In this document: positions 1,112-61,711 of the stretch, one piece after another | How positions within the stretch are numbered: position 1 is the first letter of the stretch | Layout: the number at the start of each line of letters is the position of its first letter | Assembly (NCBI GenBank): GCA_947629255.1 | Contig: CANRDF010000003.1 | Span: forward strand, 1 to 63,753 | Origin: an uncultured Bacilli bacterium | Lineage (GTDB): Bacteria; Bacillota_I; Bacilli_A; RF39; UBA660 | Direction: 5' to 3' | DNA length: 63,753 bases | The notes under the pieces: generated by a model | The model's input: the letters and a program-made list of their open reading frames with translations, nothing else | What the model was told of the DNA's origin: nothing | Database searches by the model: none | Program-made: the position numbers and the translations under genes

Positions 1112-1171
1112 AAATCCTCCTTTTATCCATTTAATTGTCATTGATTTATCAAAAATTTTAAATCTGTTAAA

Positions 1172-1393: not shown

Positions 1394-1405
1394 AGTTTCC
1401 TCTTT

Positions 1406-2542: not shown

Positions 2543-2552
2543 TTCCTTTCAT

Positions 2553-8495: not shown

Positions 8496-8512
8496 AACAG
8501 CTTCCTCCTTCT

Positions 8513-9200: not shown

Positions 9201-9209
9201 TTAAGTCAC

Positions 9210-9512: not shown

Positions 9513-9544
9513 ATTCGACTCTCCTATTTAAAGATATCACTAAG

Positions 9545-9805
9545 TTAAAAGAAAATCAACCTTTTCCCATTTTTTAAGCCAGACTCTTTCACTGATACTT
9601 CTGGATCATAAAAAATATTTTGTTCACAATCATATAACGCATTTTGAAGGTCTAAAGGAAACACATCATTACTTATTTCATGAATAGAACGAGCAATCAT
9701 ACAAATAACATCTACAATTTTTTTGTTTGGTGGTAAAAATACTTCAAATTCTTGATCTAACTTAATAACATAAATGGAAACAAAAATTTTATTCATTTTC
9801 TTCAC
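9545..9805 (-). CDS. esaB: EsaB/YukD-like ubiquitin-fold T7SS protein
   Basis: It is 86 aa long and overlaps the essC stop by 17 nt. Size and position match EsaB/YukD. The sequence call itself is weak. Confidence 0.55.
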   Translation of the reverse strand: MKKMNKIFVSIYVIKLDQEFEVFLPPNKKIVDVICMIARSIHEISNDVFPLDLQNALYDCEQNIFYDPEVSVKESGLKNGKRLIFF

Positions 9806-14351: not shown

Positions 14352-14413
14352 CTAACCCACTTCCTTTATTCTTAAAAAGAATTATAGCATAAAAAAAGAA
14401 GAAAGAAAAGAAA

Positions 14414-14436
14414 AAATAACCTTTGAAAGGTTATCT
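14414..14436. repeat. target-site duplication, left copy (AAATAACCTTTGAAAGGTTATCT)
   Basis: An identical 23-mer recurs at 16104..16126, immediately outside the IS inverted repeats. The 23-mer itself contains the hairpin ATAACCTTT/AAAGGTTAT. Confidence 0.85.
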
Positions 14437-15944: not shown

Positions 15945-16103
15945 CTCCTATTCTAACCATCCTTATTATCTCATATTTGCATGAAAAAAGCGAGATTTTG
16001 CAATGACTTTTTTGGTTAAAATAGGAGTCATTTTTCTCGCCAATTTCATTATAATACTTTTTTTCATAAAAAAAAGACTATTGACCTTTTTGTCAACAGC
16101 CTG
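14437..16103 (-). mobile_element. IS1182/IS5-superfamily insertion sequence
   Basis: The terminal inverted repeats are CAGATTGTTGACAAAAG (left) and CAGGCTGTTGACAAAAAG (right, reverse complement). The element has a single transposase ORF and is flanked by a 23-bp direct repeat. Confidence 0.85.
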
Positions 16104-16126
16104 AAATAACCTTTGAAAGGTTATCT
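16104..16126. repeat. target-site duplication, right copy
   Basis: Identical to 14414..14436. It overlaps the stop codon of the tandem-WXG gene by 1 nt. Confidence 0.85.
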
Positions 16127-16788
16127 TAAGCTCCTCTATCTGCACTTTGAGCTGCCATAGCAGCAGCATTAATGTTGCTAATACAAATATCTAAATTACT
16201 ATATATTTTTGTCATATTCGTATCAGCAGTATTTGTTAAAGTATTTTTAGCAGATTCTGCTGCATCACCATCCCAAATACCTTCCCCACTATTTAACCGA
16301 TTAATAGTAGTTAATAAATTTACTTTAACTCCATCTAATTTTTCTTTGATTTGTTTCAAAGAAGTACCAATGTTACTGATAACTTCATAATCATAAGTAA
16401 CAATTTCCTTATTAATGTTTTCAGCAGCCATTTGACTTAATTGATTAAAACTCAATTCTCCAAAAGATTGAGATACATTGGTATCAAAACCCAAATTAGA
16501 AACTTCTAGCCCAGCTACACTTTTTGCTACTTCATTCATAGTTTGAGCAAAAGCATCTCCAAACTCATTAGAAAAAGCAACTAAAGCATTATGAGTTTCC
16601 ATAAAATTTTGATAGTTTTGATATGCAGCTGCTCCAGTCCAAACTTGAGGTTTAACAAGTTCTGACACTAATTCATTAAATTTTCTAACACAACTTGCAA
16701 CACTATCTTCTTCCCCACTAATAATTTTGATTAAACTATTAGACCAATTTTTTACTGAATCAGGATTGTAAACAAAAGCCATACTCAT
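16126..16788 (-). CDS. tandem (fused) WXG100-family protein, EsxA-like, 220 aa
   Basis: Two W-x-G hairpin motifs occur in one chain: 'VWTGAAAY' (aa ~49) and 'IWDGDAAE' (aa ~163). The C-terminal 'YSNLD' fits the YxxxD/E pattern. Confidence 0.75.
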   Translation of the reverse strand: MSMAFVYNPDSVKNWSNSLIKIISGEEDSVASCVRKFNELVSELVKPQVWTGAAAYQNYQNFMETHNALVAFSNEFGDAFAQTMNEVAKSVAGLEVSNLGFDTNVSQSFGELSFNQLSQMAAENINKEIVTYDYEVISNIGTSLKQIKEKLDGVKVNLLTTINRLNSGEGIWDGDAAESAKNTLTNTADTNMTKIYSNLDICISNINAAAMAAQSADRGA

Positions 16789-16891
16789 TCCTCCTTTAAC
16801 TTTGTACGCTTATACTTACATATTAACTGTAACACAAAAAACAGGAAAAGAAAAAAGAAATAAACTAATTTTACACTTTTTTACATTTAAT

Positions 16892-18445
16892 TTATTTCTT
16901 TAAAGCTTTAATTTCTTCTAATTTCTTTGGAATATCAATTCTTTGAAATAATGGACTTGGTTCAGCAACCTCGTAAACTAAATCTTCTCTAAAAGTCGAA
17001 TCTTTTTCAGTTGTTCCCAGTTGTCTTAAAATTTCTACACTTGTATCAGGTAAGAAAGGTGCAATTTCTAAAGCACTCATCCGAATAACTTCTAACAAAT
17101 GATACATTACGGTTTCAAGTCGGTTTCTATTTTCTTCTTCTTTTGCTAAAGCCCAAGGCATCGTATCATCAATATATTTATTGCATTTTCTTAACATTTC
17201 AAAAATCTCATCTAAAGCAGAACCGATTTCCAAACGTTCCATCTTTTCATCCACTCTTTGGGATAAACTTTGAGCTGATTTAAGTAAATCATCATCTAAA
17301 CTTTCTAAATCTTTTGTATATTTAACAGTTCCATCAAAATACTTCCGAACCATAGAAATTGTTCGATTGACTAAATTTCCTAAAACATTCGCTAAATCAC
17401 TATTGATACGTTCCATAATAAGTTCATAGGTAATCGTTCCATCATTTTGAAAAGGAATTTCATGTAATACATAATAACGAATCGCATCTACCCCAAAAAG
17501 TTCAACCAAATCATCCGCATACATAATATTACCTTTGCTCTTACTCATTTTATCTGTCCCAAATAAAAGCCAAGGATGACCAAAAACCTGCTTAGGAAGT
17601 TCCACACCTAAAGCCATCAAAATAATAGGCCAATAAATCGTATGAAAACGAATAATATCTTTTCCAATCAAATGTAAGTCACAAGGCCACCATTTCTTAA
17701 ACTCCTCGTTCCCACCATCCACATCATAACCAATATTGGTAATATAATTAGATAAAGCATCAATCCAAACATAAACAACATGTTTATCATTAAAAGGAAC
17801 TTTAACTCCCCAATCAAAAGTTGTACGAGAAACACACAAATCCTGTAAACCAGGCTCTAAGAAATTATGAATCATTTCATTCTTACGAGATTCTGGTTGA
17901 ATAAAAGAAGGATGACTTTCAATATAATCAATGAGTTGTTTTTGATATTTAGAAAGCTTAAAGAAATAAGCTTCCTCACTTCTTTTCTCTACTTCTCTAC
18001 CACAATCAGGACACTTTCCATCAACAAGTTGAGTCTCTGTCCAAAAAGATTCACAAGGAGTACAATAAAGTCCTTCATATTGTCCTAAATAAATATCACC
18101 TTGCTGATATAACTTTTCAAAAATCCGACCAACAACTTCCTTATGATGAGCATCTGTAGTTCTAACAAATTTATCATAACTAGTATTCATAATATCCCAA
18201 ATTCTTTTTATTTCCCGGGAAATATTATCTACGTACTCTTGAGGTTCTAGTCCCGCTTCTCTTGCTTTTAACTCAATCTTCTCTCCATGTTCATCTGTTC
18301 CAGTTTGAAAATAAACATCATATCCACGACTTCTTTTATACCTTGCAATCGCATCTGCAAGAACAATCTCATAAGTATTTCCTATATGAGGTTTAGAAGA
18401 AGCATAAGCGATAGCTGTTGTAATGTAATATTTTTCTTTTTCCAT
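16892..18445 (-). CDS. metG: methionine--tRNA ligase
   Basis: 'AYASSKPHIGN' (HIGH), 'KMSKSKGN' (KMSKS) and the CPxC..CPDC zinc knuckle. I trimmed the start to MEKEKYY (Met27), because the longer ORF runs into the T-box leader. Confidence 0.95.
   Translation of the reverse strand: MEKEKYYITTAIAYASSKPHIGNTYEIVLADAIARYKRSRGYDVYFQTGTDEHGEKIELKAREAGLEPQEYVDNISREIKRIWDIMNTSYDKFVRTTDAHHKEVVGRIFEKLYQQGDIYLGQYEGLYCTPCESFWTETQLVDGKCPDCGREVEKRSEEAYFFKLSKYQKQLIDYIESHPSFIQPESRKNEMIHNFLEPGLQDLCVSRTTFDWGVKVPFNDKHVVYVWIDALSNYITNIGYDVDGGNEEFKKWWPCDLHLIGKDIIRFHTIYWPIILMALGVELPKQVFGHPWLLFGTDKMSKSKGNIMYADDLVELFGVDAIRYYVLHEIPFQNDGTITYELIMERINSDLANVLGNLVNRTISMVRKYFDGTVKYTKDLESLDDDLLKSAQSLSQRVDEKMERLEIGSALDEIFEMLRKCNKYIDDTMPWALAKEEENRNRLETVMYHLLEVIRMSALEIAPFLPDTSVEILRQLGTTEKDSTFREDLVYEVAEPSPLFQRIDIPKKLEEIKALKK
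18210..18223. promoter_or_regulatory. perfect Noc-binding-site (NBS) palindrome ATTTCCCGGGAAAT
   Basis: Exact 14/14 match to the B. subtilis NBS consensus. It lies inside the metG CDS. Confidence 0.6.
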
Positions 18446-18686: not shown

Positions 18687-19214
18687 CTAAAGAATGTCAA
18701 TTTTATTTCCAATAATTTTAATAAAAAATTGAACAAAATTCTTCATATAAGATAAAAATGGTTGGTCACTTACCAAAACAACAAATCCAATCACATCACT
18801 AGAAACCAAAATAGGCGCGACAAAAAAATACCCATTAAGCTCTACATCTTCAAAAAAAGACTCCATTACCATTGATTCATAAGTCGTTCTTTCATCTAAC
18901 AACTTTGCGAATTTATCATTGAGTTCATGATTTAAAATTGCATCGATACTAGACGCCAATACTCTTTCTCTATCGGTAACAAAAATATTCAAGTTCATCT
19001 CCGTATGAGCAAGTTCACAAAGTCTTGCCACTAAATCATGAAATACAAGTAATCTCGAATGTTTTTGTAAATAAATACCTTGGTTATCAACAAATATTTC
19101 TAAATCTTCACCATCTTTAATTCCTAAAGACCTTCGTATCTCTTTTGGCAAAACAATTCGCCCAAGTTCATCAATTTTACGTATAATACCTGTTTCTTTC
19201 ACAAAAAATTCCAC
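18687..19214 (-). CDS. spoVT: AbrB/SpoVT-family regulator (stage V sporulation protein T-like)
   Basis: The N-terminal 'GIIRKIDELGRIVLPKEIRRSLGI..GEDLEIF' is a SpoVT/AbrB swapped-hairpin domain, followed by a GAF-like C-terminus. It is 175 aa and sits downstream of mfd, as in Bacillus. Confidence 0.8.
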   Translation of the reverse strand: MEFFVKETGIIRKIDELGRIVLPKEIRRSLGIKDGEDLEIFVDNQGIYLQKHSRLLVFHDLVARLCELAHTEMNLNIFVTDRERVLASSIDAILNHELNDKFAKLLDERTTYESMVMESFFEDVELNGYFFVAPILVSSDVIGFVVLVSDQPFLSYMKNFVQFFIKIIGNKIDIL

Positions 19215-23043: not shown

Positions 23044-23757
23044 TTAACTCCTTTCAAAAATTCCTTGATAACTTGATAAACCCTGTATAACCTTAGGTGC
23101 ATAGACTTTTGTTCCAAACTTTGCATCTTTAACTAGAGTCATTAGAACAATAATAGGTTTAGACTCAATTTTAGAATGAACAAATTGAACCTCTTTTACA
23201 CCAAAACCATATTTATGAGCATACACAATAATTTCATCAAGCCTATCAGGTACATGCACTAAATAAAATTTTCCTCTTGACTTTAATAGAAAACTCGCTA
23301 TCTCTATTAAATCTTCAAGTTTGAGTAACACTTCATGTCTCGCGACTCTTTTTAAGACATTATCATTCACAATGCTACTTTCTGTCGTCTTAAAATACGG
23401 TGGATTACACAAAATGACATCAAAATTATTTCCCGGGAAATAATTTTTTAACTCCATCACATCTTTATGAAGGATTTGAATGTCTTCAGACATGTGATTT
23501 ACAAGCACCGAATCGCAAGCTAACTCATAAATTTCCTCCTGAACTTCAACTCCTATCACTTTTTTATGATACTTTTGATGAAGAACAATCGGAATTACTC
23601 CATTTCCCGTGCACAAATCCAAAATTTTATTATCACTCGCTTTAATATCAGCGAATTCAGCAAGTAAAATAGAATCTAAAGAAAATTTAAAGCCTTCTTC
23701 ATACTGATACACTTGTAAATCTGGATAATCAAACAACCAATTAAGCGACTTTTTCAT
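23044..23757 (-). CDS. SAM-dependent methyltransferase, YabB/TrmN6-like (tRNA m6A37 type)
   Basis: 'ILDLCTGNGVIP' is a SAM motif I and 'CNPPYF' is an NPPY catalytic motif. The position matches B. subtilis yabB. Confidence 0.75.
   Translation of the reverse strand: MKKSLNWLFDYPDLQVYQYEEGFKFSLDSILLAEFADIKASDNKILDLCTGNGVIPIVLHQKYHKKVIGVEVQEEIYELACDSVLVNHMSEDIQILHKDVMELKNYFPGNNFDVILCNPPYFKTTESSIVNDNVLKRVARHEVLLKLEDLIEIASFLLKSRGKFYLVHVPDRLDEIIVYAHKYGFGVKEVQFVHSKIESKPIIVLMTLVKDAKFGTKVYAPKVIQGLSSYQGIFERS
23428..23441. promoter_or_regulatory. perfect Noc-binding-site (NBS) palindrome ATTTCCCGGGAAAT
   Basis: Exact 14/14 match, inside the methyltransferase CDS. Confidence 0.6.
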
Positions 23758-25389: not shown

Positions 25390-25578
25390 TTATTTTACTA
25401 TAAAAAACAAAATAATTAAAGAAGAAAGCCCCGGAAGTCCTAATAAAGTTACAGTTCCTACCGTAAAAAGATTGATAGGAATGTAAATATGCAAAGAAGA
25501 AATAAAATAATTAAGACCATATAACAGCAAAAAAGCTACAACAATTTTTCGAACCAATACATAAATTTTCTTTAGCAT
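25390..25578 (-). CDS. bofA: BofA-family pro-sigma-K processing inhibitor
   Basis: 'LHIYIPINLFTVGTVTLLGLPGLSSLIILFFI' parallels B. subtilis BofA 'LGIHVPINLVTTAISGILGIPGIAALVVI'. It sits in the recR-adjacent position. Confidence 0.75.
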   Translation of the reverse strand: MLKKIYVLVRKIVVAFLLLYGLNYFISSLHIYIPINLFTVGTVTLLGLPGLSSLIILFFIVK

Positions 25579-26226: not shown

Positions 26227-26523
26227 TTACATCAAACCATCTAACATGCCAGCATATTGTCCCATTTTACTCTGAAATTCTTTGTCAACCTTTGCTAAAG
26301 CATCCTTTGTAGCAAGAACAATAAAATCTTCCAACATTTCAATATCTTCAGCAGCTAAAGATTCTTTTTGAATTTGACATTTCACCATTTCTTTCTTCCC
26401 ATTTAACGTCACTTCTACAAATTCATATTTCCCGGGAAATAATTGAGCATTAATTTCATCCTTCTTTTTTTGAATGTCTCTTTGCATTTTTTGAGCTTGA
26501 GCCATTATACTTTGCATATTCAT
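26227..26523 (-). CDS. ybaB: YbaB/EbfC nucleoid-associated protein
   Basis: It is 98 aa, starts 'MQSIMAQAQKMQRDIQKKK', and sits in the conserved dnaX-ybaB-recR order. Confidence 0.9.
   Translation of the reverse strand: MNMQSIMAQAQKMQRDIQKKKDEINAQLFPGKYEFVEVTLNGKKEMVKCQIQKESLAAEDIEMLEDFIVLATKDALAKVDKEFQSKMGQYAGMLDGLM
26427..26440. promoter_or_regulatory. perfect Noc-binding-site (NBS) palindrome ATTTCCCGGGAAAT
   Basis: Exact 14/14 match, inside the ybaB CDS. Confidence 0.6.
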
Positions 26524-28762: not shown

Positions 28763-28778
28763 TGTTCCACGTGGAACT
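28763..28778. promoter_or_regulatory. parS-like site 1
   Basis: TGTTCCACGTGGAACT (15/16). Confidence 0.7.
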
Positions 28779-28827
28779 ATCATATTTAAATATATATACA
28801 AATGTTCGTTTCATTATAAAATTTTAA

Positions 28828-28843
28828 TGTTCCACGTGGAACA
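28828..28843. promoter_or_regulatory. parS-like site 2
   Basis: TGTTCCACGTGGAACA. A perfect 24-bp palindrome spans 28824..28847. Confidence 0.85.
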
Positions 28844-28946
28844 TTAACTTTAATATTACAAAATAATTAAATTTTTCTTAGTCTTTCAATTTAGTTCACT
28901 ATTTTTGGAAGTTATAAAAAGTTTTTAAATTTTTTTTTGAATTATA

Positions 28947-28962
28947 TGTTTCACGTGAAACA
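28947..28962. promoter_or_regulatory. parS-like site 3
   Basis: TGTTTCACGTGAAACA. A perfect 24-bp palindrome spans 28943..28966. Confidence 0.85.
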
Positions 28963-29107
28963 TATACTTATAATCCAAACATTTTTGATACTTTTTTAAA
29001 TTATTAAGATATGTAGTTTCTATTATAACAAAATTTACAATTTATTACATATAATACGTATAAATTGTAATATTCCAATTATTTTAAATTAATACTGTTT
29101 ATTTCAA

Positions 29108-29123
29108 TGTTTCACGTGGAACA
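29108..29123. promoter_or_regulatory. parS-like site 4
   Basis: TGTTTCACGTGGAACA, with mixed half-sites. Confidence 0.85.
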
Positions 29124-29169
29124 TTCAGTTATTCACAATCACAAAAAGCAAGTTAAAAAAACATGCAAA

Positions 29170-29185
29170 TGTTTCACGAGAAACA
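29170..29185. promoter_or_regulatory. parS-like site 5 (degenerate core)
   Basis: TGTTTCACGAGAAACA, with CACGAG instead of CACGTG. The flanks extend the palindrome to 29166..29189. Confidence 0.6.
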
Positions 29186-29273
29186 TTTGTTATTCACTAA
29201 AAAAATACACCAATTAATAATATTTTAATAAAATATACATTAATTTGATTAAAAAATAATTCTTATTACAATA

Positions 29274-29289
29274 TGTTCCACGTGGAACA
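29274..29289. promoter_or_regulatory. parS-like site 6
   Basis: TGTTCCACGTGGAACA. Confidence 0.85.
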
Positions 29290-29438
29290 TTAGTTATAAA
29301 CATTTTTAAATTTATAAAACATAAAAATATTCTTTATTATAAATTCAATTTGCATTAATTTAAAATTATTCCTTTTAAAATTTAATATACTATAAATTTT
29401 ACTAATTTAAATATTAAAATTTATTATTAACTAATCAA

Positions 29439-29454
29439 TGTTCCACGTGGAACA
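29439..29454. promoter_or_regulatory. parS-like site 7
   Basis: TGTTCCACGTGGAACA. Confidence 0.85.
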
Positions 29455-29505
29455 TTCTGTAACGTTTTAAAGAATATAAATTAATTCCTACAAATATTCA
29501 ACTTA

Positions 29506-29521
29506 TGTTTCACGTGAAACA
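29506..29521. promoter_or_regulatory. parS-like site 8
   Basis: TGTTTCACGTGAAACA. A 22-bp palindrome spans 29503..29524. Confidence 0.85.
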
Positions 29522-29644
29522 TAAAATTGGACTAATGCTCATAACTTTTAAAATACTAAATCAATTTAATTATATATATTAAAAAATTAACTTATATCCA
29601 ATGCATAACTCAATATCAATAAAAATTTAAACCTTATCAAAAGA

Positions 29645-29660
29645 TGTTCCACGTGAAACA
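29645..29660. promoter_or_regulatory. parS-like site 9
   Basis: TGTTCCACGTGAAACA, identical to the B. subtilis consensus. The palindromic flanks span 29637..29668. Confidence 0.85.
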
Positions 29661-29758
29661 TCTTTTGAAATTTAAACTCAAAACTAATTTTTAACATATG
29701 CAGCAAATAACACTATCATTACAGATTTAATATGTTAATAATTTTTATTCATTTCTAA

Positions 29759-29774
29759 TGTTCCACGTGGAACA
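29759..29774. promoter_or_regulatory. parS-like site 10
   Basis: TGTTCCACGTGGAACA. A perfect 30-bp palindrome spans 29752..29781. Confidence 0.85.
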
Positions 29775-35424: not shown

Positions 35425-35904
35425 TTATAACATATTATTTTCCATTTTAAAACGATTTTTTACATTTTTTCGTACTCTCAAAGCACTTTCCAAACGTGTA
35501 GAACGAAGAACTTGATTATCCAAAACACCATAGGAAGAAGATAGTATTAAACTCTTGTTATTTTTAAATAAAATTTCCACTCCCCCATACCCTCTTCGGT
35601 ATTCCAAAATATGATTTAAACTTATCCACACCGTATCTTGTTTTCGAATAGATGTCATTGGAAAAAAGATCATTTCATTTGACTCTTCCACAATGATAGG
35701 AGCCTTATATTTTACTCCAATAATTTCTTCTGTCCCTTTTTTTCTTCCTTCCAAACTACTTCCATAATAACGACAACTATGTTCAATAATATTAGTTGTT
35801 GAATCACGTACTAAAAAGTCCCCATGAACTTCGTACACTTGAGTAATGTTATCTTCAATAGGAATTAAAGCAAGTGTATCAATATTAATTTCATATTCTT
35901 TCAT
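35425..35904 (-). CDS. comK: ComK-family competence transcription factor
   Basis: 'IIEHSCRYYGSSLEGRKKGTEEI..YKAPIIVEESNEMIFFPMTS..VWISLNHI' aligns with B. subtilis ComK 'IVDRSCRFFGSSYAGRKAGT..HKPPIMVDPSNQIFLFPTLS..GWISHVHV'. Confidence 0.8.
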   Translation of the reverse strand: MKEYEINIDTLALIPIEDNITQVYEVHGDFLVRDSTTNIIEHSCRYYGSSLEGRKKGTEEIIGVKYKAPIIVEESNEMIFFPMTSIRKQDTVWISLNHILEYRRGYGGVEILFKNNKSLILSSSYGVLDNQVLRSTRLESALRVRKNVKNRFKMENNML

Positions 35905-39095: not shown

Positions 39096-39314
39096 TTAAC
39101 TTTGTTGAAGTTCTTTTATTACTTCAATAGATAAACCAGTTACCTTAGATATATATGAAATATCAGATTTCTTCAACATAGCTTTTGCAATCTCCTCACT
39201 TTTGTCATCTTTTCCTTCCCCATAGGCAATCACTCGTTCTATATCCACAGATGCCCACTTTTTTGCGACCCTCTTTGCTTGTTTTAAATCTTTTTTGTTT
39301 GCTGCAAATATCAT
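39096..39314 (-). CDS. stand-alone homologue of the Rpn-nuclease C-terminal domain (72 aa)
   Basis: 'MIFAANKKDLKQAKR..ERVIAYGEGKD..EEIAKAMLKK..ISKVTGLSIEVIKELQQS' is collinear with the last ~75 aa of the upstream 281-aa protein ('MILAANAEDFRQARK..ERVIAFGEGKD..EEIAKALLKK..ISEVTGFSIENIEELKNS'). It has its own RBS. Confidence 0.65.
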   Translation of the reverse strand: MIFAANKKDLKQAKRVAKKWASVDIERVIAYGEGKDDKSEEIAKAMLKKSDISYISKVTGLSIEVIKELQQS

Positions 39315-39353: not shown

Positions 39354-40199
39354 TTAGCTGTTTTTAAGTTCTTCAATATTTTCAATAGAAAAACCTGTCA
39401 CTTCAGAAATTGTATTAAAATCTAGCTCAGTCTTTTTTAACAAAGCTTTTGCAATTTCTTCAGCCATAGCATCTTTTCCTTCACCAAAAGCAATAACTCT
39501 TTCCTTTTCCTCAGAGGTCCATCTTTTGGCTTTCCTAGCCTGTCTAAAATCTTCAGCATTCGCGGCTAATATCATCAAATCTTCATCCTCTCTAGCAATT
39601 TGCCTCATTTTCTTTAGAGATTTCTCACCAATCATTTGTAAATGTCTTAATAGCAAATCATTTTCACCATCATTGTATCCCATTTCTTTTGCTTTGTCAA
39701 CATTTAAGATATAGAGTTCGATATTACTAGGTAATTCTTTATATTCAGGACCTTCTCCCTTAAAATTATATTTCTGAAACCAACGATTTGGTAAGTTTAA
39801 GTTTTTACTTACTTTCCCTGCTATAATAATACCTATTACCTTCTTACCTTCAGTATACTTTTGCTTTTCTTGTAACTGTTCTGCATCAGTACTAGATAAA
39901 TAAGATAATTCCTTCTTTAAACTTTCTAGATTTAAAGTAGTTTGAGCTTCTATATTAATAATATAATGAGGAGTATAGATAATAATATCTCCCCTTTTCT
40001 CTTTCGTAGATAATTTTTTCTTTTGAAAAATATACTCAATTTGAATCATAATCTCTTCCAAATATTCCTCTTCATGAATATATTGAAAGAAACCTTTTAA
40101 AAAAGATAACATAACTCTTTTATCACGATACAGATGTTTAAACATGTCATCAAATAAAATCTTCTTTTTTCCATAACTCTTAGATGCCAAAGAAATCAC
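39354..40199 (-). CDS. Rpn-family (YhgA-like, PD-(D/E)XK) recombination-promoting nuclease / putative transposase
   Basis: 'FDDMFKHLY', a 'GDIIIY..IINIEAQT' PD-(D/E)XK-like core, and a C-terminal helical tail typical of the family. It uses a GTG start. Confidence 0.65.
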   Translation of the reverse strand: MISLASKSYGKKKILFDDMFKHLYRDKRVMLSFLKGFFQYIHEEEYLEEIMIQIEYIFQKKKLSTKEKRGDIIIYTPHYIINIEAQTTLNLESLKKELSYLSSTDAEQLQEKQKYTEGKKVIGIIIAGKVSKNLNLPNRWFQKYNFKGEGPEYKELPSNIELYILNVDKAKEMGYNDGENDLLLRHLQMIGEKSLKKMRQIAREDEDLMILAANAEDFRQARKAKRWTSEEKERVIAFGEGKDAMAEEIAKALLKKTELDFNTISEVTGFSIENIEELKNS

Positions 40200-46120: not shown

Positions 46121-47992
46121 GTGAAACAAATGAAATATGAAATAATCGTAGTCGGAGGAGGTCATGCTGGAATTGAAGCTGCCCATATTGGAGCCTTTAA
46201 AGGTCACAAAACATTACTTGTAACAGGAAATATCAAAAACATCGGTGATATGCCATGTAATCCATCCATTGGTGGTTCAGCGAAAGGAATTATCGTAAGA
46301 GAAATTGATGCTTTAGGCGGACTCATGGGAAGAGTAGCTGACATTTCTCATTTTCAAATCAAAATGCTTAACAATTCGAAAGGACCAGCCGTTCGTAGTT
46401 TACGTGCTCAAGCAGACAAAGTAACATATCCGAAAAACATGTTGAAAGAATTAGAGAGTACTCCAAATTTGACCATACAAGAAAGCATGGTAGAAGATTT
46501 AATCGTGGAAGACAACACGGTAAAAGGAATTATCTTAGAAGATGGAAGCAAAATTGAAGGTGAAAAAATCATACTTACAACCGGAACCTATTTAAAAGCC
46601 AACATTTTGGTCGGAAACACTTCAACAGAAAGTGGTCCTCATGGGGAAAGAAGAAGCAATCATTTAAGTGATAATCTAAAAAAATATGGTCTTCACATCC
46701 AACGTCTGAAAACAGGAACTCCCGTCAGAATAAAAGCAAGTTCTATTGATTTTTCAAAAATGCACGAAGAAGTAGGCGACAACACTTACTGGACGTTCTC
46801 TTGTGACAACCCTCCATGCTATGATATCAATAAACAACAAAAATGTTATCTTATTTATACCAATCCTAAAACCCATAAAATAATTTTAGATAACCTAGAC
46901 AAATCAGCCATGTACAGTGGGCTTGTAACTGGAGTAGGACCAAGATATTGTCCTAGTATTGAAGACAAACTTGTTAGATTTAAAGACAAAGAAAGACATC
47001 AACTTTTCTTAGAACCAGAAAGCATCCACTATGATGATTGGTATCTCCAAGGCTTTTCGACATCGATGCCAAAAAATATTCAAGAACAAATGGTAAGAAG
47101 CCTCGAAGGATTAGAAAATGCCGTGATTACAAAATATGCTTATGCAATTGAGTATGATGCTATTGACCCATTACAAATCATGCCATCCCTAGAGTCAAAG
47201 GTAATTAAAAATCTATATACAGCAGGCCAAATTAATGGAACGAGTGGATACGAAGAAGCAGCAGGTCAAGGAATTGTTGCCGGAATCAATGCAGCCTTAA
47301 GTCTTGAAAAAGAAGAACCTCTCATATTAAAAAGAAACGAAGCTTACATTGGTGTTTTAATTGATGATTTAGTAACCAAAGGTACCAACGAGCCATACCG
47401 AATGCTAACAAGTCGTGCTGAGTTCCGTCTTATCCTTCGCCATGACAATGCCGATTTAAGACTTCGTCCACTAGCTAAAAAATGTGGTTCTATCACCGAT
47501 ACTCAATACCAAAATTACTTAAATAAAAAGAAAGAAATTGAAGAATGTGAAATATTTTTAAAAGAGACAAAATGCAAACTAACATCAGAAGTAAAAGAAA
47601 TTTTTGCCAAAGAAAATATTCCCGTTCCAAGTATAACCGAAACATTCTATGATTTATTAAAACGTCCAGAGATTACCATAAAGTTTTTAAATAAAATTGA
47701 ACCAATTCCTTTCAAAGAAGAAATTCAAGAAGAAATGGAAATTCAAATTAAATACGATGGATACATCAAGAAAACTTATAAAGAAGTAGAAAAAATGATG
47801 AAACTAGAAGAAAAAGAAATTCCAAGTGATATTGATTATACAAAAGTAAAAAATCTAGCTTCAGAAGCTCGTCAAAAATTAGAAAAAATAAGACCAATCT
47901 CCTTAGGACAAGCAACAAGAATCAGTGGTGTAAATCCAAGTGACATAGCCATATTAAATGTTTATTTAAAGAAAGAGTATAACCATGAATAA
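46121..47992 (+). CDS. mnmG: tRNA uridine 5-carboxymethylaminomethyl modification enzyme MnmG
   Basis: 'VVGGGHAGIEAA', 'GPRYCPSIEDK' and 'GQINGTSGYEEAA'. Confidence 0.96.
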   Translation: MKQMKYEIIVVGGGHAGIEAAHIGAFKGHKTLLVTGNIKNIGDMPCNPSIGGSAKGIIVREIDALGGLMGRVADISHFQIKMLNNSKGPAVRSLRAQADKVTYPKNMLKELESTPNLTIQESMVEDLIVEDNTVKGIILEDGSKIEGEKIILTTGTYLKANILVGNTSTESGPHGERRSNHLSDNLKKYGLHIQRLKTGTPVRIKASSIDFSKMHEEVGDNTYWTFSCDNPPCYDINKQQKCYLIYTNPKTHKIILDNLDKSAMYSGLVTGVGPRYCPSIEDKLVRFKDKERHQLFLEPESIHYDDWYLQGFSTSMPKNIQEQMVRSLEGLENAVITKYAYAIEYDAIDPLQIMPSLESKVIKNLYTAGQINGTSGYEEAAGQGIVAGINAALSLEKEEPLILKRNEAYIGVLIDDLVTKGTNEPYRMLTSRAEFRLILRHDNADLRLRPLAKKCGSITDTQYQNYLNKKKEIEECEIFLKETKCKLTSEVKEIFAKENIPVPSITETFYDLLKRPEITIKFLNKIEPIPFKEEIQEEMEIQIKYDGYIKKTYKEVEKMMKLEEKEIPSDIDYTKVKNLASEARQKLEKIRPISLGQATRISGVNPSDIAILNVYLKKEYNHE

Positions 47993-48686
47993 GAATGATT
48001 TTTATGAAAAAGTAGCTGATTTAAAAATTGAACTCACAGAAGAAATGAAGATGAAATTAGAAAAATATGCTGATTTTTTATTAGAATATAATATGCATAC
48101 CAACCTAACCGCCATCAAAACGAAAGAAGAAGTCTATTTAAAACATTTTTATGACTCCATGACATTAACAAAAATAGCCAATTTAACAGAAGGAACACTT
48201 TTAGATATTGGAACAGGTGCCGGATTCCCAGGATTAGTACTTGCTATCATTTATCCGAATTTACAAGTTAGCTTATTAGATTCTAACAATAAAAAGATTA
48301 AATTTTTAGAAGAAACAGTCACATTATTAAACTTAAAAAATGTAAAAATCATTTATAGTCGAGCCGAAGATTATACTCAAAAGAATAGAGAACAATATGA
48401 CTATGTTACTTCGAGAGCTGTTGCTGAATTAAGAATTTTATTAGAGTTAAATATACCTGCATTAAAAGTAAATGGTTCCTTTTTAGTCATGAAAGGAAAT
48501 GCCGAGAAAGAAATAAAATCATCTGAAAATGCTTTAGAAAAATTAAATGTAAAAATTGAAAATCAAGAAGAATTTGAACTTCCATTAAATGGGGGACATC
48601 GAACATTATTAAAAATAAAGAAATTAAAAGAAACAAATTTAATATATCCTAGAAGTTACGATAAAATTAAAAAGAAACCGTTATAA
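47985..48686 (+). CDS. rsmG: 16S rRNA (guanine527-N7)-methyltransferase RsmG
   Basis: 'HFYDS', 'LLDIGTGAGFPGL' and 'SRAVA'. Confidence 0.93.
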   Translation: MNKNDFYEKVADLKIELTEEMKMKLEKYADFLLEYNMHTNLTAIKTKEEVYLKHFYDSMTLTKIANLTEGTLLDIGTGAGFPGLVLAIIYPNLQVSLLDSNNKKIKFLEETVTLLNLKNVKIIYSRAEDYTQKNREQYDYVTSRAVAELRILLELNIPALKVNGSFLVMKGNAEKEIKSSENALEKLNVKIENQEEFELPLNGGHRTLLKIKKLKETNLIYPRSYDKIKKKPL

Positions 48687-48908
48687 AGTTTCTTTTTTGA
48701 TAAAAATAAAGAAAAACAACACGTAAACCAAACGTGTCATTTTTCTATTTGACTTCTAAAAAGTCATGTAGATAACCATCTTATCTACATAAATAGTATG
48801 AATAAATTTAAAAAAATTATACATCAAAATATTCTTTTCCAATTTTCGACAAAGTCTCGTATAAATCGATAAATATTATGCATACTAAAATTAGAAAGGA
48901 GAAAACTT

Positions 48909-49085
48909 ATGTTAAAAGACAAAACTGCACTATTTATTTTGTTATTATTACTTATTGGGTTTCTTCCTTTAATAGGAGTACATGCCGCTTCAAGAATTAT
49001 TAACGGTGAGGATAATTTACAAGATATAAGTATAACAGAAAAGATTGTAGAAAGTAATAATGAAACACAAAAAAAAATAGTTTAG
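48909..49085 (+). CDS. small secreted peptide candidate (58 aa, not in the ORF track)
   Basis: It has an AAAGGAG RBS 8 nt upstream. 'MLKDKTALFILLLLLIGFLPLIGVHAAS' looks like a signal peptide with an AxA-type cleavage site, followed by a hydrophilic 30-aa tail. Confidence 0.4.
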   Translation: MLKDKTALFILLLLLIGFLPLIGVHAASRIINGEDNLQDISITEKIVESNNETQKKIV

Positions 49086-49297
49086 GTATATCTTGGAATG
49101 ATTGATGGTATTAAGCATAGAAAGTCTAGGGAACTTTAATAAGTTTCTTTTTTTTATAAGCTTTGTAAATATAATAAGTTTAAAATTTTAAAATTTTCTT
49201 AAATTAGATTAAAAAATTTTCACATTCAGTGTTGCTATTCCCACAAAAAATTGATACAATTAATAATAGAAAATAAGCAGTAAGGGGCTGATTTTTT

Positions 49298-50575
49298 GTG
49301 AATACAGAGGATAAAATTGTACAAATCGGAATAGAGGATATCATTCCCAATCGTTTTCAACCAAGACTTGCCTTTGACGAAGAAGGTTTAAAAGAACTAT
49401 CAGAATCTATTCGTCAACATGGAATTATCCAACCACTTGTAGTAAGAAGATTAGGAAGTAAGTTTGAAATCATTGCTGGAGAACGTCGTTTTAAGGCGGC
49501 AACTATGGCAGGATTAAAAACAGTCCCCGCAATTATTTCAAATATAGATGACAATCAAAGTGCAGAGATAGCTTTAGTAGAAAACATCCAAAGAAGAAAC
49601 TTAACACCAATTGAAGAAGCAAAATCATATAAAAATCTTTTGGACCGCGGCTATATGACTCAAGAACAACTCGCTGAAAAAATGGGAGTAAGTCAAAGTT
49701 CTATTGCTAATAAATTAAGATTATTAAATCTTGCTCCAGAAGTGCAAGATGCCTTGCTTCAAGAAAAAATTAGTGAACGTCATGCAAGAAGCTTGCTCAG
49801 TTTGCCAAAAGAAGAACAAGGAGAATGGCTACATAAAATCTTAAATAAACGACTTACTGTAAGACAATTAGATTTAGAAATTAAAAAAGCGAAAGGAGAC
49901 GTGGGAGGAGATATTCCATTAGTATCTCCATCACCAGATATAAATACTATGATAAATAACGCGACAGATATTCATACAATTAATGAGAAAAAAGATATGT
50001 CTGGCATCATCGAGCCACCAAAACAAGAAGATCCTCAAGAAGAAGTTCCCGAAGAACGAAAAGGAATTCCAAATAAATTCTTTAATTTTCTTGAAGATGA
50101 AGCAGCATCAATGAACATGGATAGTGCATTTGCAAATCCAGAAGAGCCACCAATAGAACCTCAAAATACGATTGAAGTTTTAGATGATATTGAACTTGTA
50201 ACACCTGAGATTATGCCTACTAAAGAAGAAATCCCTGCACAGCCTACCGAGAGTACCACTCCTCCGAATGAAGAGGATGATGTCATCATGCCATTCTTCT
50301 TTGAAGAAAACGAAACACCTGCCGAAAACAATGTCATCGAAGAAAAGAAAGATGAAAAAGATGCAGTTGTAGACCCAATGGCCTCTGTGATTAAATTAGA
50401 TCCTAACTATACTCAAATGGTAGAAGAAGAAGCGGGGTTAGACTTAAAAACAGCAATCAATGAAATCCGTGATGTCGTTGAAAATCTAAAACAAAAAGGT
50501 TTTGATATTTCCGTAGATGAAATAGATTTATCTGGAAATTACCAAATGACAATTAATATAAAAGAAAATGATTAG
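49298..50575 (+). CDS. noc: ParB-family protein, Noc-like (nucleoid occlusion type) with a long inserted acidic/proline-rich linker
   Basis: 'PNRFQPR', 'GIIQPLVV', 'GERRFKAA', an HTH 'SQSSIANKLRLL' and 'ISERHARSL' (compare B. subtilis Noc 'GQSTIANKLRLL', 'ITERHARAL'). It sits in the rsmG-adjacent noc position and uses a GTG start. It is 425 aa. Confidence 0.75.
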   Translation: MNTEDKIVQIGIEDIIPNRFQPRLAFDEEGLKELSESIRQHGIIQPLVVRRLGSKFEIIAGERRFKAATMAGLKTVPAIISNIDDNQSAEIALVENIQRRNLTPIEEAKSYKNLLDRGYMTQEQLAEKMGVSQSSIANKLRLLNLAPEVQDALLQEKISERHARSLLSLPKEEQGEWLHKILNKRLTVRQLDLEIKKAKGDVGGDIPLVSPSPDINTMINNATDIHTINEKKDMSGIIEPPKQEDPQEEVPEERKGIPNKFFNFLEDEAASMNMDSAFANPEEPPIEPQNTIEVLDDIELVTPEIMPTKEEIPAQPTESTTPPNEEDDVIMPFFFEENETPAENNVIEEKKDEKDAVVDPMASVIKLDPNYTQMVEEEAGLDLKTAINEIRDVVENLKQKGFDISVDEIDLSGNYQMTINIKEND

Positions 50576-50584
50576 AACAAAACT

Positions 50585-52525
50585 CTAGTCATTTTTTTCA
50601 TCTTTAGAATAGACTTGAACTTCACTTCCTCTTACATAGTAAAACATCGTATTATTTTTACTAGCCGTATTTTGTACACCTGTAATCCCATCACGAATAA
50701 GCCCTACCACATTTTGAGGTTTCTCATACCAAACAGGTTCCACATCCTGAAGATATTTTTCCATGGTATCTAACCATATATTTTTAGAATAATAACTCGC
50801 ACTTCCATCAATATCTTTTGCATCGTCATTTCCAATCCAAACAAGCATTAAAACATTCGGGTTATATCCAACACTCCAAGAATCAGTATCTGTAGTTCCT
50901 GTTTTCAAAGCATACTTACGGCTCATCTTTGAAGCAATCGACAAAGCAGTAGGTGTGGTGTAATCTGAAAAAGCTGAATTCGTCGTATTAGTCATCATTT
51001 CATTTAAAATAAATACATCATTACTATTTAAAACATAATTATGTTTTTGCTTATGCTCATATAAAACATGTCCTTCCATATCTTCCACTTTTTCTATAAA
51101 ATAAATTTCTTTCTCATCTCCACCACTAGCTAAAGTCGTATATCCATGAGCAAAATCAAGCATATTAAGTTCACTCGTCCCAAGAGCAAGTGAAGGATTT
51201 CCAACCAGGTCTTCCTCGATACCTGTGAGGTGAGCTGTATCAACCAAAACATCCGTACCCAAAAACAAATGCGTTTTCACAGCATAGATATTATCCGAAA
51301 AAGCAATTGCCGCGGCCATTGTAATTTCTTTATTAGCATAAATTTGATTATAATTACTTGGCGAATAAACAGCCTGATTAGCAAAATGAAAAGTCGTTTT
51401 TTCACTCTTAAACAAAGAAGAAGAAGTAAGCCCGTTTTCCAAAGCAGCATAATAAAGAAAAGGTTTCATTGTACTACCCACTTGTCTTTTCGACATTGTC
51501 GCCCGGTTAAACTGACTCTTAGCATAATTAAGTCCTCCCGTTAAAGCAATCACGCCTCCTGTACTTGGGTCAACCATCACACTGGCAACCTGTAATTCTT
51601 CTTGATTTCCAATATAATTCAAAATAGATTCTTCCATATTTGCTTGAGCCTGACTATCAAAAGTTGTATAAATTTTAAGTCCTCCAGAAGAAATTAAATC
51701 CTTAGGCACTTCCTTAATATGACTTAATTCATCTAAAACAGCATCTTGATAATACAATATCATCTGTGAATTATTTTGAGTCCGTTTCCCGTAAATCGGT
51801 ATCTCATTCTGAAACAAACCATCATAAACTTCTTCTGTGATATAACCATTATTCACCATCGTCTCAGCAACAATCTTTGCTCTTTCGATACAAGCTTCAT
51901 AGTCACTTACTGGATTATAATTACTAGGGTTTTTAGGAATACCAGCCAGCATAATCGCTTCTTCTAAAGTCAAATCTTTACTACTCTTATTAAAATAATA
52001 CTTACTTGCATCTTCAATTCCATAATTTCCTTCGCCAAAATTAATCGTATTCAAATATCCTTCTAAAATTGCATTCTTACTATAATGAACTTCTAATTCT
52101 ACTGTTAAAAAAGCTTCTTTAATTTTTCTTTCCCAAGTTTGGTCAAACGTTAAAAACATATTTTTCACATACTGCTGACTAATCGTCGATGCTCCGTATC
52201 TTGTGTGATCTGTCATATTTTGATAAAGAGCCTTAGCAATTCTTAAATAATCAAAGCCCTTATGTCGATAGAAATTCTTATCTTCAACAGAAATAATCGC
52301 ATTTTTAAAATCATCAGAAATATCATCCAAAGAAATCCATTCACTAGAACCAGACCCTTGATAAATTAAATTGTCTTCATTATCATATATAAATACTTTT
52401 CCCATATCCTTAAGCTCTAACTTAGGAGAGAAAAAAGCAAAAATATAAATCCCTGTCAAAACAACAAAACCAGATAAACAAAGAAAAATACTAAAACGTA
52501 AGACAAATTTAAGTTTTTTCATCAT
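50585..52525 (-). CDS. class A penicillin-binding protein (glycosyltransferase + transpeptidase)
   Basis: GT51 motifs 'EDKNFYRHKGFD', 'GASTISQQ' and 'RKIKEA', plus transpeptidase motifs 'STMKP' (SxxK) and 'KTGTT'. Confidence 0.9.
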   Translation of the reverse strand: MMKKLKFVLRFSIFLCLSGFVVLTGIYIFAFFSPKLELKDMGKVFIYDNEDNLIYQGSGSSEWISLDDISDDFKNAIISVEDKNFYRHKGFDYLRIAKALYQNMTDHTRYGASTISQQYVKNMFLTFDQTWERKIKEAFLTVELEVHYSKNAILEGYLNTINFGEGNYGIEDASKYYFNKSSKDLTLEEAIMLAGIPKNPSNYNPVSDYEACIERAKIVAETMVNNGYITEEVYDGLFQNEIPIYGKRTQNNSQMILYYQDAVLDELSHIKEVPKDLISSGGLKIYTTFDSQAQANMEESILNYIGNQEELQVASVMVDPSTGGVIALTGGLNYAKSQFNRATMSKRQVGSTMKPFLYYAALENGLTSSSLFKSEKTTFHFANQAVYSPSNYNQIYANKEITMAAAIAFSDNIYAVKTHLFLGTDVLVDTAHLTGIEEDLVGNPSLALGTSELNMLDFAHGYTTLASGGDEKEIYFIEKVEDMEGHVLYEHKQKHNYVLNSNDVFILNEMMTNTTNSAFSDYTTPTALSIASKMSRKYALKTGTTDTDSWSVGYNPNVLMLVWIGNDDAKDIDGSASYYSKNIWLDTMEKYLQDVEPVWYEKPQNVVGLIRDGITGVQNTASKNNTMFYYVRGSEVQVYSKDEKND

Positions 52526-53123: not shown

Positions 53124-53969
53124 TTAATCCTCAGTAGTTTCATCTTTTAATGCTTCAATATCTTCTATGGATAAATTAGTCATTTCAGAAATATCAGAGA
53201 TGTCATATCCTTTTTTAAGCATCTTTTTTGCCACTTCTTTTTTACCATCTTCATAACGCTCTTCCCCAATTTGTCTTTGTAAGTCTTCTTTATCGTAGTA
53301 AAGCATTAAATCGAGGTCACTTACAAGTTGGTTGGCTTCTTCCCTTATACTACCCATCATTTTGTCTCCTTCATATAATTCATCAAGTTGTTCCTCATCT
53401 GAACATACGAATAAATAAAGTAATTTCTCTAATTCATTCGCATTTCTGATATTATTATAACCCAAATTTCTCAAATAGTCTAGATTAATATCAATGACAT
53501 ATAAATCTAGATGTCGAGGGTCATTGCTCTCTCTTTCTTTTAATTCACTAAAGTAAAGAAAACGATCCTTACCAAAATAATCAAAATCATCTAAGTTCAC
53601 TTGATAAACTGGTTTTAAATTCTTATACTCTTTGCTACTTTTAAGTTGTCTTAAATAAAGAATAATTGTATAAGAACCGTTTTTAACATCTAAAGTATCA
53701 GATTTTCCTTGGTTAATTTCGAAAGAAACAAAGTATTCATCCGATTCAAAAGCAATATCAAGTTCACTATCTACCGTATTAGCATTAACACCAGCATTTG
53801 GATGAATTAACCGAAAACCTTTTTTTAATTTTTCATAAGGAATTCCAGTTGCTAAAGAAACAATTTTTAATAAGTATTCTTGAGAAGCCTCAGAACCACT
53901 TGAAAATATTTTTTTAACAACTTTGTCACTTATAAGCTTATGTTTTTTTTCTTGAGTCGCCGTTGCCAT
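53124..53969 (-). CDS. Rpn-family (YhgA-like, PD-(D/E)XK) nuclease / putative transposase
   Basis: 'SDKVVKKIF', the 'SELDIAFES..FVSFEINQ' core and the C-terminal 'KGYDISDISEMTNLSIEDIEALK' tail. I trimmed the start to MATATQ, which has a GGAGGA RBS. Confidence 0.65.
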   Translation of the reverse strand: MATATQEKKHKLISDKVVKKIFSSGSEASQEYLLKIVSLATGIPYEKLKKGFRLIHPNAGVNANTVDSELDIAFESDEYFVSFEINQGKSDTLDVKNGSYTIILYLRQLKSSKEYKNLKPVYQVNLDDFDYFGKDRFLYFSELKERESNDPRHLDLYVIDINLDYLRNLGYNNIRNANELEKLLYLFVCSDEEQLDELYEGDKMMGSIREEANQLVSDLDLMLYYDKEDLQRQIGEERYEDGKKEVAKKMLKKGYDISDISEMTNLSIEDIEALKDETTED

Positions 53970-54034
53970 GTTATCCTCCATTTCTAAATCTTGCATTTTT
54001 AGCAAGATTAGTTCGTTATTATACACGGAAGGGT

Positions 54035-61204: not shown

Positions 61205-61711
61205 ATGAAAAAAATAATTCCTATATTATTTATCCTATTTTTAGTCTATGGCTTAACAAATAAAGAAGAAGTCATAATACCAGACTACGCAATTCGCTTT
61301 CGAGTAATTGCAAACTCAAATACCTTACAAGACCAAACAACAAAGTATCTTGTGAAAAATGATTTAGAAAACAAACTAAATGACTTAATGCAAGACGTTA
61401 AAACAAAAGAAGAAGCAAGCGAGAAAATAGAAGAATCTATGCCGTGGATAAGAGAAGAAGTAAATAAATATACTTTAAAAAACACAGTTTCATATGGAAA
61501 AAATGAATTCCCAGAAAAAGAATACAAAGGAGTTGTGTATCCAAGTGGAAAATATGATTCACTAGTCATCACTTTAGGAAATGGAGAAGGCGAAAACTGG
61601 TGGTGTGTGATGTTCCCACCATTATGCTTACTAGATGCCAAAGAAAACAATACAGAAGATGTGGAATACAAATTCTTTGTTCAAGAAATCTTGAATCAAT
61701 TCCATTCATAG
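61205..61711 (+). CDS. spoIIR: stage II sporulation protein R
   Basis: A signal anchor, 'IRFRVIANSNTLQDQ' and 'NWWCVMFPPLC' match the SpoIIR family pattern. Confidence 0.85.
   Translation: MKKIIPILFILFLVYGLTNKEEVIIPDYAIRFRVIANSNTLQDQTTKYLVKNDLENKLNDLMQDVKTKEEASEKIEESMPWIREEVNKYTLKNTVSYGKNEFPEKEYKGVVYPSGKYDSLVITLGNGEGENWWCVMFPPLCLLDAKENNTEDVEYKFFVQEILNQFHS

Follow-up and report, generated by a model that had tools for sequence, protein, structure and literature searches.

The gene at positions 49298-50575 (plus strand) of a 63,753-nucleotide stretch of DNA from an uncultured Bacilli bacterium (assembly GCA_947629255.1, contig CANRDF010000003.1; hereafter the window) encodes a protein of 425 amino acids (aa), starting with GTG, which by descent and by DNA code we identify as a Noc, an assignment that is solid as far as sequence comparison goes and that draws on profile and tree evidence for the open reading frame (ORF). 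We think it probable that this long-linker Noc is the Noc orthologue of an uncultured, spore-forming lineage of gut Bacilli, that it acts as a CTP clamp loading at Noc-binding sites (NBS) with its effector in the linker, and that a separate Spo0J serves the parS sites. According to the mechanism that we propose, the protein would be a CTP-dependent DNA clamp of the ParB fold, loaded at the 16-bp NBS TATTTCCCGGGAAATA and not at parS, and its effector function would reside in a long acidic linker with a [KR]FF helix (RKGIPNKFFNFLEDE) instead of at the N-terminus, acting either by membrane tethering or by docking onto a partner in cell division or chromosome organization. The parS array of the same origin region would be read by a separate, canonical Spo0J/ParB, split from noc by a rearrangement and likely to lie next to ftsH. 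The family membership, the motifs, the synteny, the conservation of NBS and parS sites and the predicted disorder were observed directly and are described below.

Noc and ParB differ at four specificity positions, 173, 179, 184 and 201, which read RTAG in ParB and QKKR in Noc; Q173 and R201 read, respectively, A at NBS position 1 and C at NBS position 6, Lys at either 179 or 184 has a permissive effect, and parS-specific variants always retain R173, with G or a small polar residue (C, S or T) at 201 (Jalal 2020, PMC7383237). The equivalent residues here are Q133, K139, N144 and R161 (QKNR). Three of the four are Noc-like, as a sequence-only reading of the window had proposed, and comparison with the published set bears this out; the fourth is N instead of K. 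Since one Lys or Arg at 179 or 184 suffices, these residues would be expected to specify NBS, and the R173 and small residue at 201 that parS specificity calls for are replaced by Q133 and R161. Across 80 origin-region loci the genes in the noc slot are all Q-K-x-R and those in the spo0J slot all R-x-x-G/A/S. QKNR itself recurs in the short Nocs of Paenibacillus, Holdemania and Solobacterium, the Holdemania protein scoring 336 bits on the Noc model TIGR04285, above its curated cut-off of 315, and it is found in 111 of 150 representatives of the family to which our protein belongs (QK[NSTA]R in about 139 of them).

TIGR04285 is the best NCBIfam match of the protein, and a PDB sequence search returned Noc first (7NG0 and 7NFU, 197 bits) vs 166-174 bits for Spo0J. 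When the segment comprising the N-terminal domain (NTD) and the DNA-binding domain (DBD) was scored with both models, the margin of the Noc model over the ParB model was +88 bits, close to the +90 of Bacillus subtilis Noc, while two Spo0J proteins, that of B. subtilis and one from the protein's own lineage, gave +22 and +34, respectively. In a neighbour-joining (NJ) tree of 121 NTD + DBD sequences, the family forms a clade with a support of 97/100, the short Noc-like Erysipelotrichales protein is sister to it, and the bipartition that sets the family and canonical Noc apart from all ParB/Spo0J is supported by 85/100, so that the protein falls with Noc and not within Spo0J/ParB.

Public annotation would make the protein an ordinary partition ParB/Spo0J and thus the reader of the parS array: a homologue (P0040) bears the NCBI name 'ParB/RepB/Spo0J family partition protein', the score of our protein stays under the cut-off of the Noc model, and a large parS array lies 20 kb away. 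We give this almost no credence. The protein does resemble Spo0J/ParB (TIGR00180; PDB 6SDK, 1VZ0 and 6T1F) in its three-domain clamp architecture, its CTP motifs and an identity of 38-48% over NTD + DBD, whereas ParB has a ParA-stimulating LG[RK]GL peptide, R173/G201 and a gene placed after parA. No LG[RK]GL motif is present (the N-terminus reads MNTEDKIVQIG), Q and R stand where R173 and G201 would be, no parA/soj adjoins the gene, which is followed in the window by a convergent penicillin-binding protein (PBP) gene, the tree groups the protein with Noc, and the family coexists in many relatives with a genuine Spo0J, a second protein besides the long-linker one. Because the ParA motif, the R173/G201 pair and a parA partner are all absent, the protein is, on the evidence of its sequence, not a partition ParB.

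The domains are those of a ParB-fold protein. A CTP-binding NTD spans aa 6-98 (49313-49591, plus strand; Pfam ParB_N, E = 2.6e-34), a helix-turn-helix DBD follows at aa 101-199 (49598-49894, plus strand; Pfam HTH_ParB, E = 3.8e-33), and a C-terminal domain of the dimerization type, with three helices and a β-hairpin, occupies aa 358-425 (50369-50572, plus strand; TIGR04285 match and AlphaFold2). The CTP motifs GERRFKA (aa 61-67) and ENIQR (aa 95-99) are retained in the family as GERRxKA and ENxQR, and R64 and N96, which correspond to R89 and N121 of B. subtilis Noc, are invariant across our alignments A1 and A2. The last 48 residues match positions 207-254 of TIGR04285 (E = 1.4e-4) and have a ParB-type predicted fold, in agreement with the earlier suggestion that this segment resembles the dimerization end of Noc/Spo0J. 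In the AlphaFold2 model, which was built on a 24-sequence alignment, NTD and DBD are folded with a predicted local distance difference test score (pLDDT) of 70-89, residues 203-358 are mostly disordered (pLDDT <50) except for two short helices at 215-221 and 260-271, and the C-terminal domain reaches a pLDDT of about 70-79. Foldseek with this model gave Geobacillus thermoleovorans Noc (7NFU) as best match and superposed the DBD on that of the Noc DBD-NBS complex 6Y93 with a root-mean-square deviation of 1.3-1.7 Å. The sequence-only reading had called the protein a divergent Noc-like CTPase clamp with a disordered linker, a description to which the QKNR residues, R64 and N96, the PDB and fold matches, the NJ tree and the AlphaFold2 model all lend support. 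The peptide strings that it quoted from the protein (SQSSIANKLRLLNL, SERHARSL and KGFDISVDEIDLSGNYQMTINI) are all found there; the Spo0J string that it gave as SAGHGRTL reads SMGHGRTL in PDB chain 6SDK, a trivial difference.

Measured against the Noc reference set (the proteins of B. subtilis, G. thermoleovorans and Staphylococcus aureus, TIGR04285, and PDB 7NFU, 7NG0, 7OL9 and 6Y93), the protein shares with canonical Noc 46-52% identity over its aa 5-196, the ParB-fold CTP-binding NTD with GERR and ENxQR, the helix-turn-helix with Q173, K179 and R201, the Noc-type C-terminal domain, the position next to rsmG and the identical 16-bp NBS scattered inside genes near the origin. It differs from canonical Noc in lacking both the membrane-targeting helix α1 and α2, in N for K184, in a linker of 157 acidic residues with conserved motifs in place of about 11 basic ones (DNSEKPPKPKR in the Peribacillus Noc, L029), in a C-terminal domain that is net acidic, in its sub-cut-off model score and, within its sub-clade, in the absence of an adjacent soj-spo0J.

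Sites for such a protein are present in the window. Three perfect copies of the 16-bp NBS were found, at 18209-18224 inside metG, where it is conserved in relatives, at 23427-23442 inside a methyltransferase gene, and at 26426-26441 inside ybaB, where it spells the codons L-F-P-G-K-Y with the rare CCC and GGG. All three CCCGGG of the window fall in these sites, no imperfect copy with up to three mismatches occurs in the window, and chance would provide about 0.5 matches with up to three mismatches there vs the three perfect ones seen. No two of the sites share a codon frame, and they draw on codons that this genome of 31% GC seldom uses (CCC 4%, CCG 9%, GGG 11%), a pattern which indicates that selection acts on the DNA word itself. 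Three related loci, L084, L085 and L086, reached via YbaB homologues and one of them of the Candidatus Ventrenecus stercoripullorum type, contain 5, 3 and 7 perfect NBS per 20 kb, respectively (15 in 61 kb), and in them, too, no CCCGGG lies outside an NBS. The window and all three relatives have the ybaB site at exactly the same position, and the methyltransferase site differs little in position among them. Such conserved, perfect sites imply that the lineage maintains an NBS reader, for which our protein, with the right residues, appears to be the only candidate seen. The 10-kb flanks of noc in 22 family loci are nearly empty of NBS and parS (one perfect NBS and one near-match); since the window's own noc flank is likewise empty of both, these counts are uninformative, and it was the loci centred on ybaB that proved decisive.

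What the protein lacks is the element by which Noc reaches the membrane. The N-terminal helix of Noc (K2, F5, R7, F8 and F9) is needed for membrane binding and for function (Adams et al. 2015, PMC4331003), and canonical Nocs in our data set carry MKxxFS[RK][FL]FG[LF]G[ED]K at this place. The corresponding pattern, MKxxFS[RK][FL]FG, is absent from our protein, whose N-terminus begins where the crystallized NΔ26 construct of G. thermoleovorans Noc begins. As the sequence-only reading had pointed out, an in-frame TGA precedes the start codon: read directly from the sequence, it lies at 49289-49291 (plus strand), three codons upstream of the GTG, so that no longer N-terminus is possible. A ribosome-binding site, AAGGGG, is equally readable at 49282-49287 (plus strand). 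A stop codon 5-15 codons upstream closes the frame in every family locus, and the 150 representatives have only 14-29 residues, mostly 16, ahead of the PNRFQPR motif. In some relatives one T fewer at this spot opens the frame, which accounts for mis-called N-terminal extensions such as 'GKGLIF'. Of the features that define Noc functionally the protein fails this one, the membrane helix, in addition to the curated hidden Markov model (HMM) cut-off.

The short Nocs of Erysipelotrichales (Holdemania filiformis and Solobacterium), which share QKNR and are the sister group in the NJ tree, have the gene order noc-soj-spo0J, as in relatives within the family, and differ from our protein in their length of 257-270 aa and in a short, Lys/Arg-rich linker with neither acidic insertion nor [KR]FF. 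The Holdemania Noc (L028, 9980-10765) is likewise without the MKxxFSRFFG helix and still passes the curated Noc model, and the helix loss may therefore predate the long-linker family. The Solobacterium Noc (L025, 9938-10759) has a different N-terminus, MRQSGKSILDIF….

The missing helix gives weight to a reading in which the protein is a Noc by descent and loads at NBS without taking part in occlusion, serving instead as a chromosome organizer, a KorB-like silencer or a sporulation-linked factor whose linker recruits partners outside division. B. subtilis Noc no longer inhibits division once the helix is lost (PMC4331003), ParB-fold clamps have elsewhere been repurposed for gene silencing and other roles, the organism possesses the sporulation genes SpoIIR, SpoVT and BofA, and NBS flank the parS array in L086; yet the rsmG-noc position is conserved, the NBS lie inside genes as they do in B. 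subtilis, and an amphipathic, Phe-rich helix has been kept in the linker, which could replace the one lost from the N-terminus. We consider this explanation unlikely and continue to favour a Noc whose effector lies in the linker.

That linker is a stretch of 157 aa between the DBD and the C-terminal domain (aa 201-357; 49898-50368, plus strand), which composition (E 17%, P 13%, D 9%, net charge -31), AlphaFold2 and motif conservation characterize as acidic, Pro-rich and disordered. The sequence-only reading had noticed an acidic, Pro-rich insertion of ~170 aa, and this holds, but its bounds, aa ~225-395, do not, residues 360-399 being part of the helical C-terminal domain. In 141 full-length family representatives the linker measures 59-716 aa (median 182) and is always net negative (median charge -24). 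Searched alone, it matched no family in NCBIfam, and a Pfam scan of the whole protein placed no domain in it. Among close homologues the near-invariant motifs are IPNKFFNFLEDEAAxMxM (257-274), IEVLDD (291-297) and IMPFFFE (330-336), followed by NNxIEE (345-349) and DPMxSVIKLDPNY (359-371). The first of these contains an amphipathic '[KR]FF' helix, IPNKFFNFLEDEAASMNM (aa 257-274; 50066-50119, plus strand), which conservation and AlphaFold2 mark as a candidate effector or membrane-binding motif. K260, F261 and F262 are invariant among close homologues, x[KR]FFxxLE[DE]E is retained down to 42% identity, and [KR]FF occurs in 80 of the 141 family linkers vs 2.2% of shuffled linkers, an enrichment of approximately 25-fold.

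Between tadA and gyrA the window further contains 10 canonical parS sites in an array (28763-29774), which is probably read by a different protein, Spo0J. The 10 palindromes, many of them extended to 18 bp (ATGTTCCACGTGGAACAT), fall within 1.0 kb of a 1.2-kb AT-rich non-coding gap at an irregular spacing of 62-165 bp, a density that is unusually tight for a chromosomal centromere. Arrays are kept between tadA and gyrA in L084 (6526-7709, 8 sites), L085 (6911-7718, 6 sites) and L086 (6258-7710, 9 sites), and a parS reader must therefore exist. In L086, the first and the last parS are each preceded, at distances of 31 and 30 bp, by a perfect NBS (6227-6242 and 7665-7680, respectively), which places the two NBS at the array's ends or within them, and the loading sites of Noc and ParB therefore appear to be interleaved at this origin.

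When all ORFs of 80 aa or more in the six frames were searched with an HMM, no second ParB-family gene emerged in the window, as the sequence-only reading had held, and a Soj query against the window ORFs gave no ParA/Soj homologue. The NJ tree divides the family into two reciprocally monophyletic clades, A and B, with the window in B. The order in A is rsmG - long gene - soj - spo0J - mscS, seen in at least nine metagenome-assembled genomes (MAGs) of GTDB, in 46 metagenome loci and in an abundant species with a 1.5-Mb contig, and the Spo0J of this clade is canonical, with RRALGRGLEELF, SRSHITN, ISMGHAR and the R...G signatures. Throughout B no soj-spo0J follows noc, and in the window only the adjacency to rsmG is kept. 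A metagenome scan with the family Spo0J uncovered eight loci with the order tilS - ftsH - soj - spo0J - mscS - abgT, three of which have tatD 6-7 kb upstream of soj, and two of those three also metG. The MetG of one ftsH-linked locus, L161, which is among those with both metG and tatD, is 68% identical to that of the window, compared with 74-79% in the window's own genus-level clade. Spo0J proteins of the ftsH-linked type carry the R...G signatures and form a clade (support 38/50) that is sister to the clade holding all A-type Spo0J, plus a few from other contexts, and the Spo0J tree broadly mirrors the Noc tree. The best 120 database matches for Spo0J are all of the adjacent-to-noc type, and none of them comes to within 66% identity of ftsH-linked proteins. 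A test for the monophyly of every Spo0J gene that has no noc upstream failed, only the ftsH-linked subset being a clade, and with the soj-spo0J loci that have neither noc nor ftsH upstream (L135, L137, L138, L158, L159 and L162) the partition genes occur in three or more genomic contexts.

Past tatD the window continues for only 54 bp. Contigs matched by the genes at its ends are just 5-7 kb long, and L083, the only one to extend beyond the window, contributes 250 bp that encode part of a membrane protein, found at the same position in L161. Because sister genomes carry a canonical Spo0J either after noc or next to ftsH, a separate Spo0J would be the array reader; with good confidence we propose that soj-spo0J was moved across oriC by an ancestral rearrangement, which would put the ParB that reads the array near ftsH, approximately 6-8 kb beyond the left edge of the window. 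The presence of a perfect NBS set and a 10-site parS array, both conserved across the clade, together with the lack of another ParB or ParA in this 63.7-kb origin region, could also be read to mean that the protein is the sole ParB-family member and acts as a dual-specificity clamp on NBS and parS, with joint roles in partition and occlusion, and variants with dual specificity did occur in a ParB mutational library (PMC7383237). In that library, however, parS-specific variants invariably had R173 and dual ones mostly T or S at 201 (PMC7383237), whereas our protein has Q and R at these positions, and the residues have not shifted in the clade that has no adjacent Spo0J. Further, sister genomes have a canonical Spo0J, the ftsH-linked soj-spo0J form the clade expected for the protein's sub-lineage, and the window breaks off at tatD, only a little before the place that soj-spo0J occupies in L161. 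We therefore regard dual specificity as very improbable and retain the model of two separate clamps.

Several points nevertheless weigh against the model of an NBS-loading Noc with a linker effector. NBS binding, CTP clamp activity, the role of the linker and the location of Spo0J are all inferred, and the organism's own Spo0J was not among the genes observed. The protein scores 285.1 bits on TIGR04285, under the curated cut-off of 315, and has N, not K, at position 184. The helix that it lacks is essential in B. subtilis Noc and was reported to be extremely conserved in all homologues examined (PMC4331003). The lost helix and the linker motif do look alike (SRFFGLGEKE vs NKFFNFLEDE), but when a position-specific scoring matrix built from 24 canonical Noc N-terminal helices was scanned over the linkers, the KFF motif, although the best match in our protein, reached only p = 0.19, and p ≤ 0.05 was obtained in only 26 of 141 family members. 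Since the signal in this test is weak, we refrain from calling the [KR]FF motif a homologue of the Noc helix and treat the resemblance solely as a lead.

The motif is also flanked by acidic residues, which are unfavourable for binding to anionic membranes. In this respect it can be compared with SepF. The SepF fragment of residues 1-12 has the same layout as RKGIPNKFFNFLEDE, a Lys-rich part, then an N-F-F amphipathic segment, with an acidic stretch next to it, and differs in that its helix sits at the extreme N-terminus of an unrelated protein, which makes this an analogy and not homology. In B. subtilis SepF the membrane-targeting fragment (M1, K4, K6, K8, F10, F11 and S12) is followed by a Glu-rich stretch (PMC13507996). 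Such a KxKNFF helix ahead of a Glu-rich part is a counter-example to the argument from the acidic flank. Membrane binding by the [KR]FF motif is a possibility to which we assign somewhat less than an even chance, docking onto a protein partner or onto the protein's own NTD comes close to an even one, and the rest goes to other roles. It is a more tentative proposal, and one that we hold to be rather doubtful, that the linker between DBD and C-terminal domain has taken over the role of occlusion effector from the CTP-gated N-terminal helix, with [KR]FF and the other acidic-aromatic motifs IEVLDD and IMPFFFE, embedded in a long polyanionic disordered segment, contacting membrane or divisome directly.

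The surroundings of the gene agree with what the sequence-only reading had listed, namely the slot next to rsmG, the lack of a following soj-spo0J and a convergent PBP gene as the next one. rsmG (GidB; 47985-48686, plus strand) is the conserved upstream neighbour of noc, and the next gene downstream encodes a class-A PBP with Transgly and Transpeptidase domains (50585-52525, minus strand). A terminator-like hairpin at 48719-48737, 3' of rsmG, suggests that noc is transcribed apart from rsmG. A promoter-like TTGCTA-17-TACAAT with an extended -10 TG lies approximately 38 bp 5' of the start codon (49232-49260, plus strand), as a pattern match in a consensus scan. The spacer of 612 bp between rsmG and noc contains an ORF of 58 aa (48909-49085, plus strand) with a signal-peptide-like N-terminus, MLKDKTALFILLLLLIGFLPLIGVHAAS…, which the ENA contig annotates as a gene and for which Pfam gave no match.

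Two PDDEXK_2 ORFs (Rpn-like 'transposase'; 39354-40199 and 53124-54026) and a fragment of 72 aa (39096-39314), all on the minus strand, resemble one another in their C-terminal tail, …AKAMLKK…ISxxTGLSIExIxxL…; one ORF is located between dnaA and rpmH, and the other just 3' of the PBP gene that follows noc, near the break of synteny with the noc-soj-spo0J arrangement. At the other end of the window, an island of approximately 16 kb (838-16891) separates tatD from metG, which are adjacent in L084. In order of position it encodes an ADP-ribosylglycohydrolase (1406-2542), an ORF of 1980 aa without a Pfam match (2553-8495), an EssC-like FtsK/SpoIIIE ATPase (9789-14351), a DDE transposase (14436-15944) and a WXG100-domain protein (16126-16788), and it has the appearance of an island for type VII secretion or toxins.

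Among database proteins, the 120 nearest matches have an identity of 67-93% to ours and lengths of 379-435 aa. An exhaustive HMMER scan of 1.84 billion representatives recovered at least 150 family clusters at 50% identity, each of which outscores canonical Noc; nearly all are 340-980 aa in length, with a few shorter. The GTDB matches listed come from the guts of rabbit, deer, human and other hosts and are MAGs that bear the label uncultured Bacilli or Tenericutes; the family is abundant in human, ruminant, rabbit and chicken gut metagenomes. The window itself stems from a rabbit-gut metagenome, its sequence is present in rabbit-gut runs, and the organism is contained in the assemblies ERZ27249148 and ERZ27249360. 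The window encodes a ComK-family protein between dnaN and recF (35425-35904, minus strand), kept in relatives, as well as SpoIIR (61205-61711, plus strand), a SpoVT-like regulator (18687-19214, minus strand) and an ORF in the BofA position (25390-25578, minus strand), and on the strength of these genes this 'Tenericutes/Bacilli'-labelled gut lineage looks like a walled spore-former. In the literature that we searched, including a 2025 survey of the ParB-CTPase fold, we found no description of a Noc that lacks the helix or has a long linker.

These findings call for an annotation correction of proteins now named 'partition protein', and an origin at which perfect NBS and dense parS occur together may be useful for understanding how two paralogous clamps share one chromosome. 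The current model of Noc rests on an N-terminal helix that is freed by CTP-driven closure of the clamp, and a very large clade without this helix, which retains the NBS code letter for letter and has an acidic, disordered, motif-bearing linker in the helix's place, challenges that model and offers a natural experiment in the re-wiring of a ParB-fold clamp to its effector. The protein probably couples the chromosome to cell division by an as yet unstudied route, and a relocated effector, if true, would mean a mechanistically distinct, possibly CTP-ungated mode of Noc action across a very large group of uncultured gut Firmicutes.

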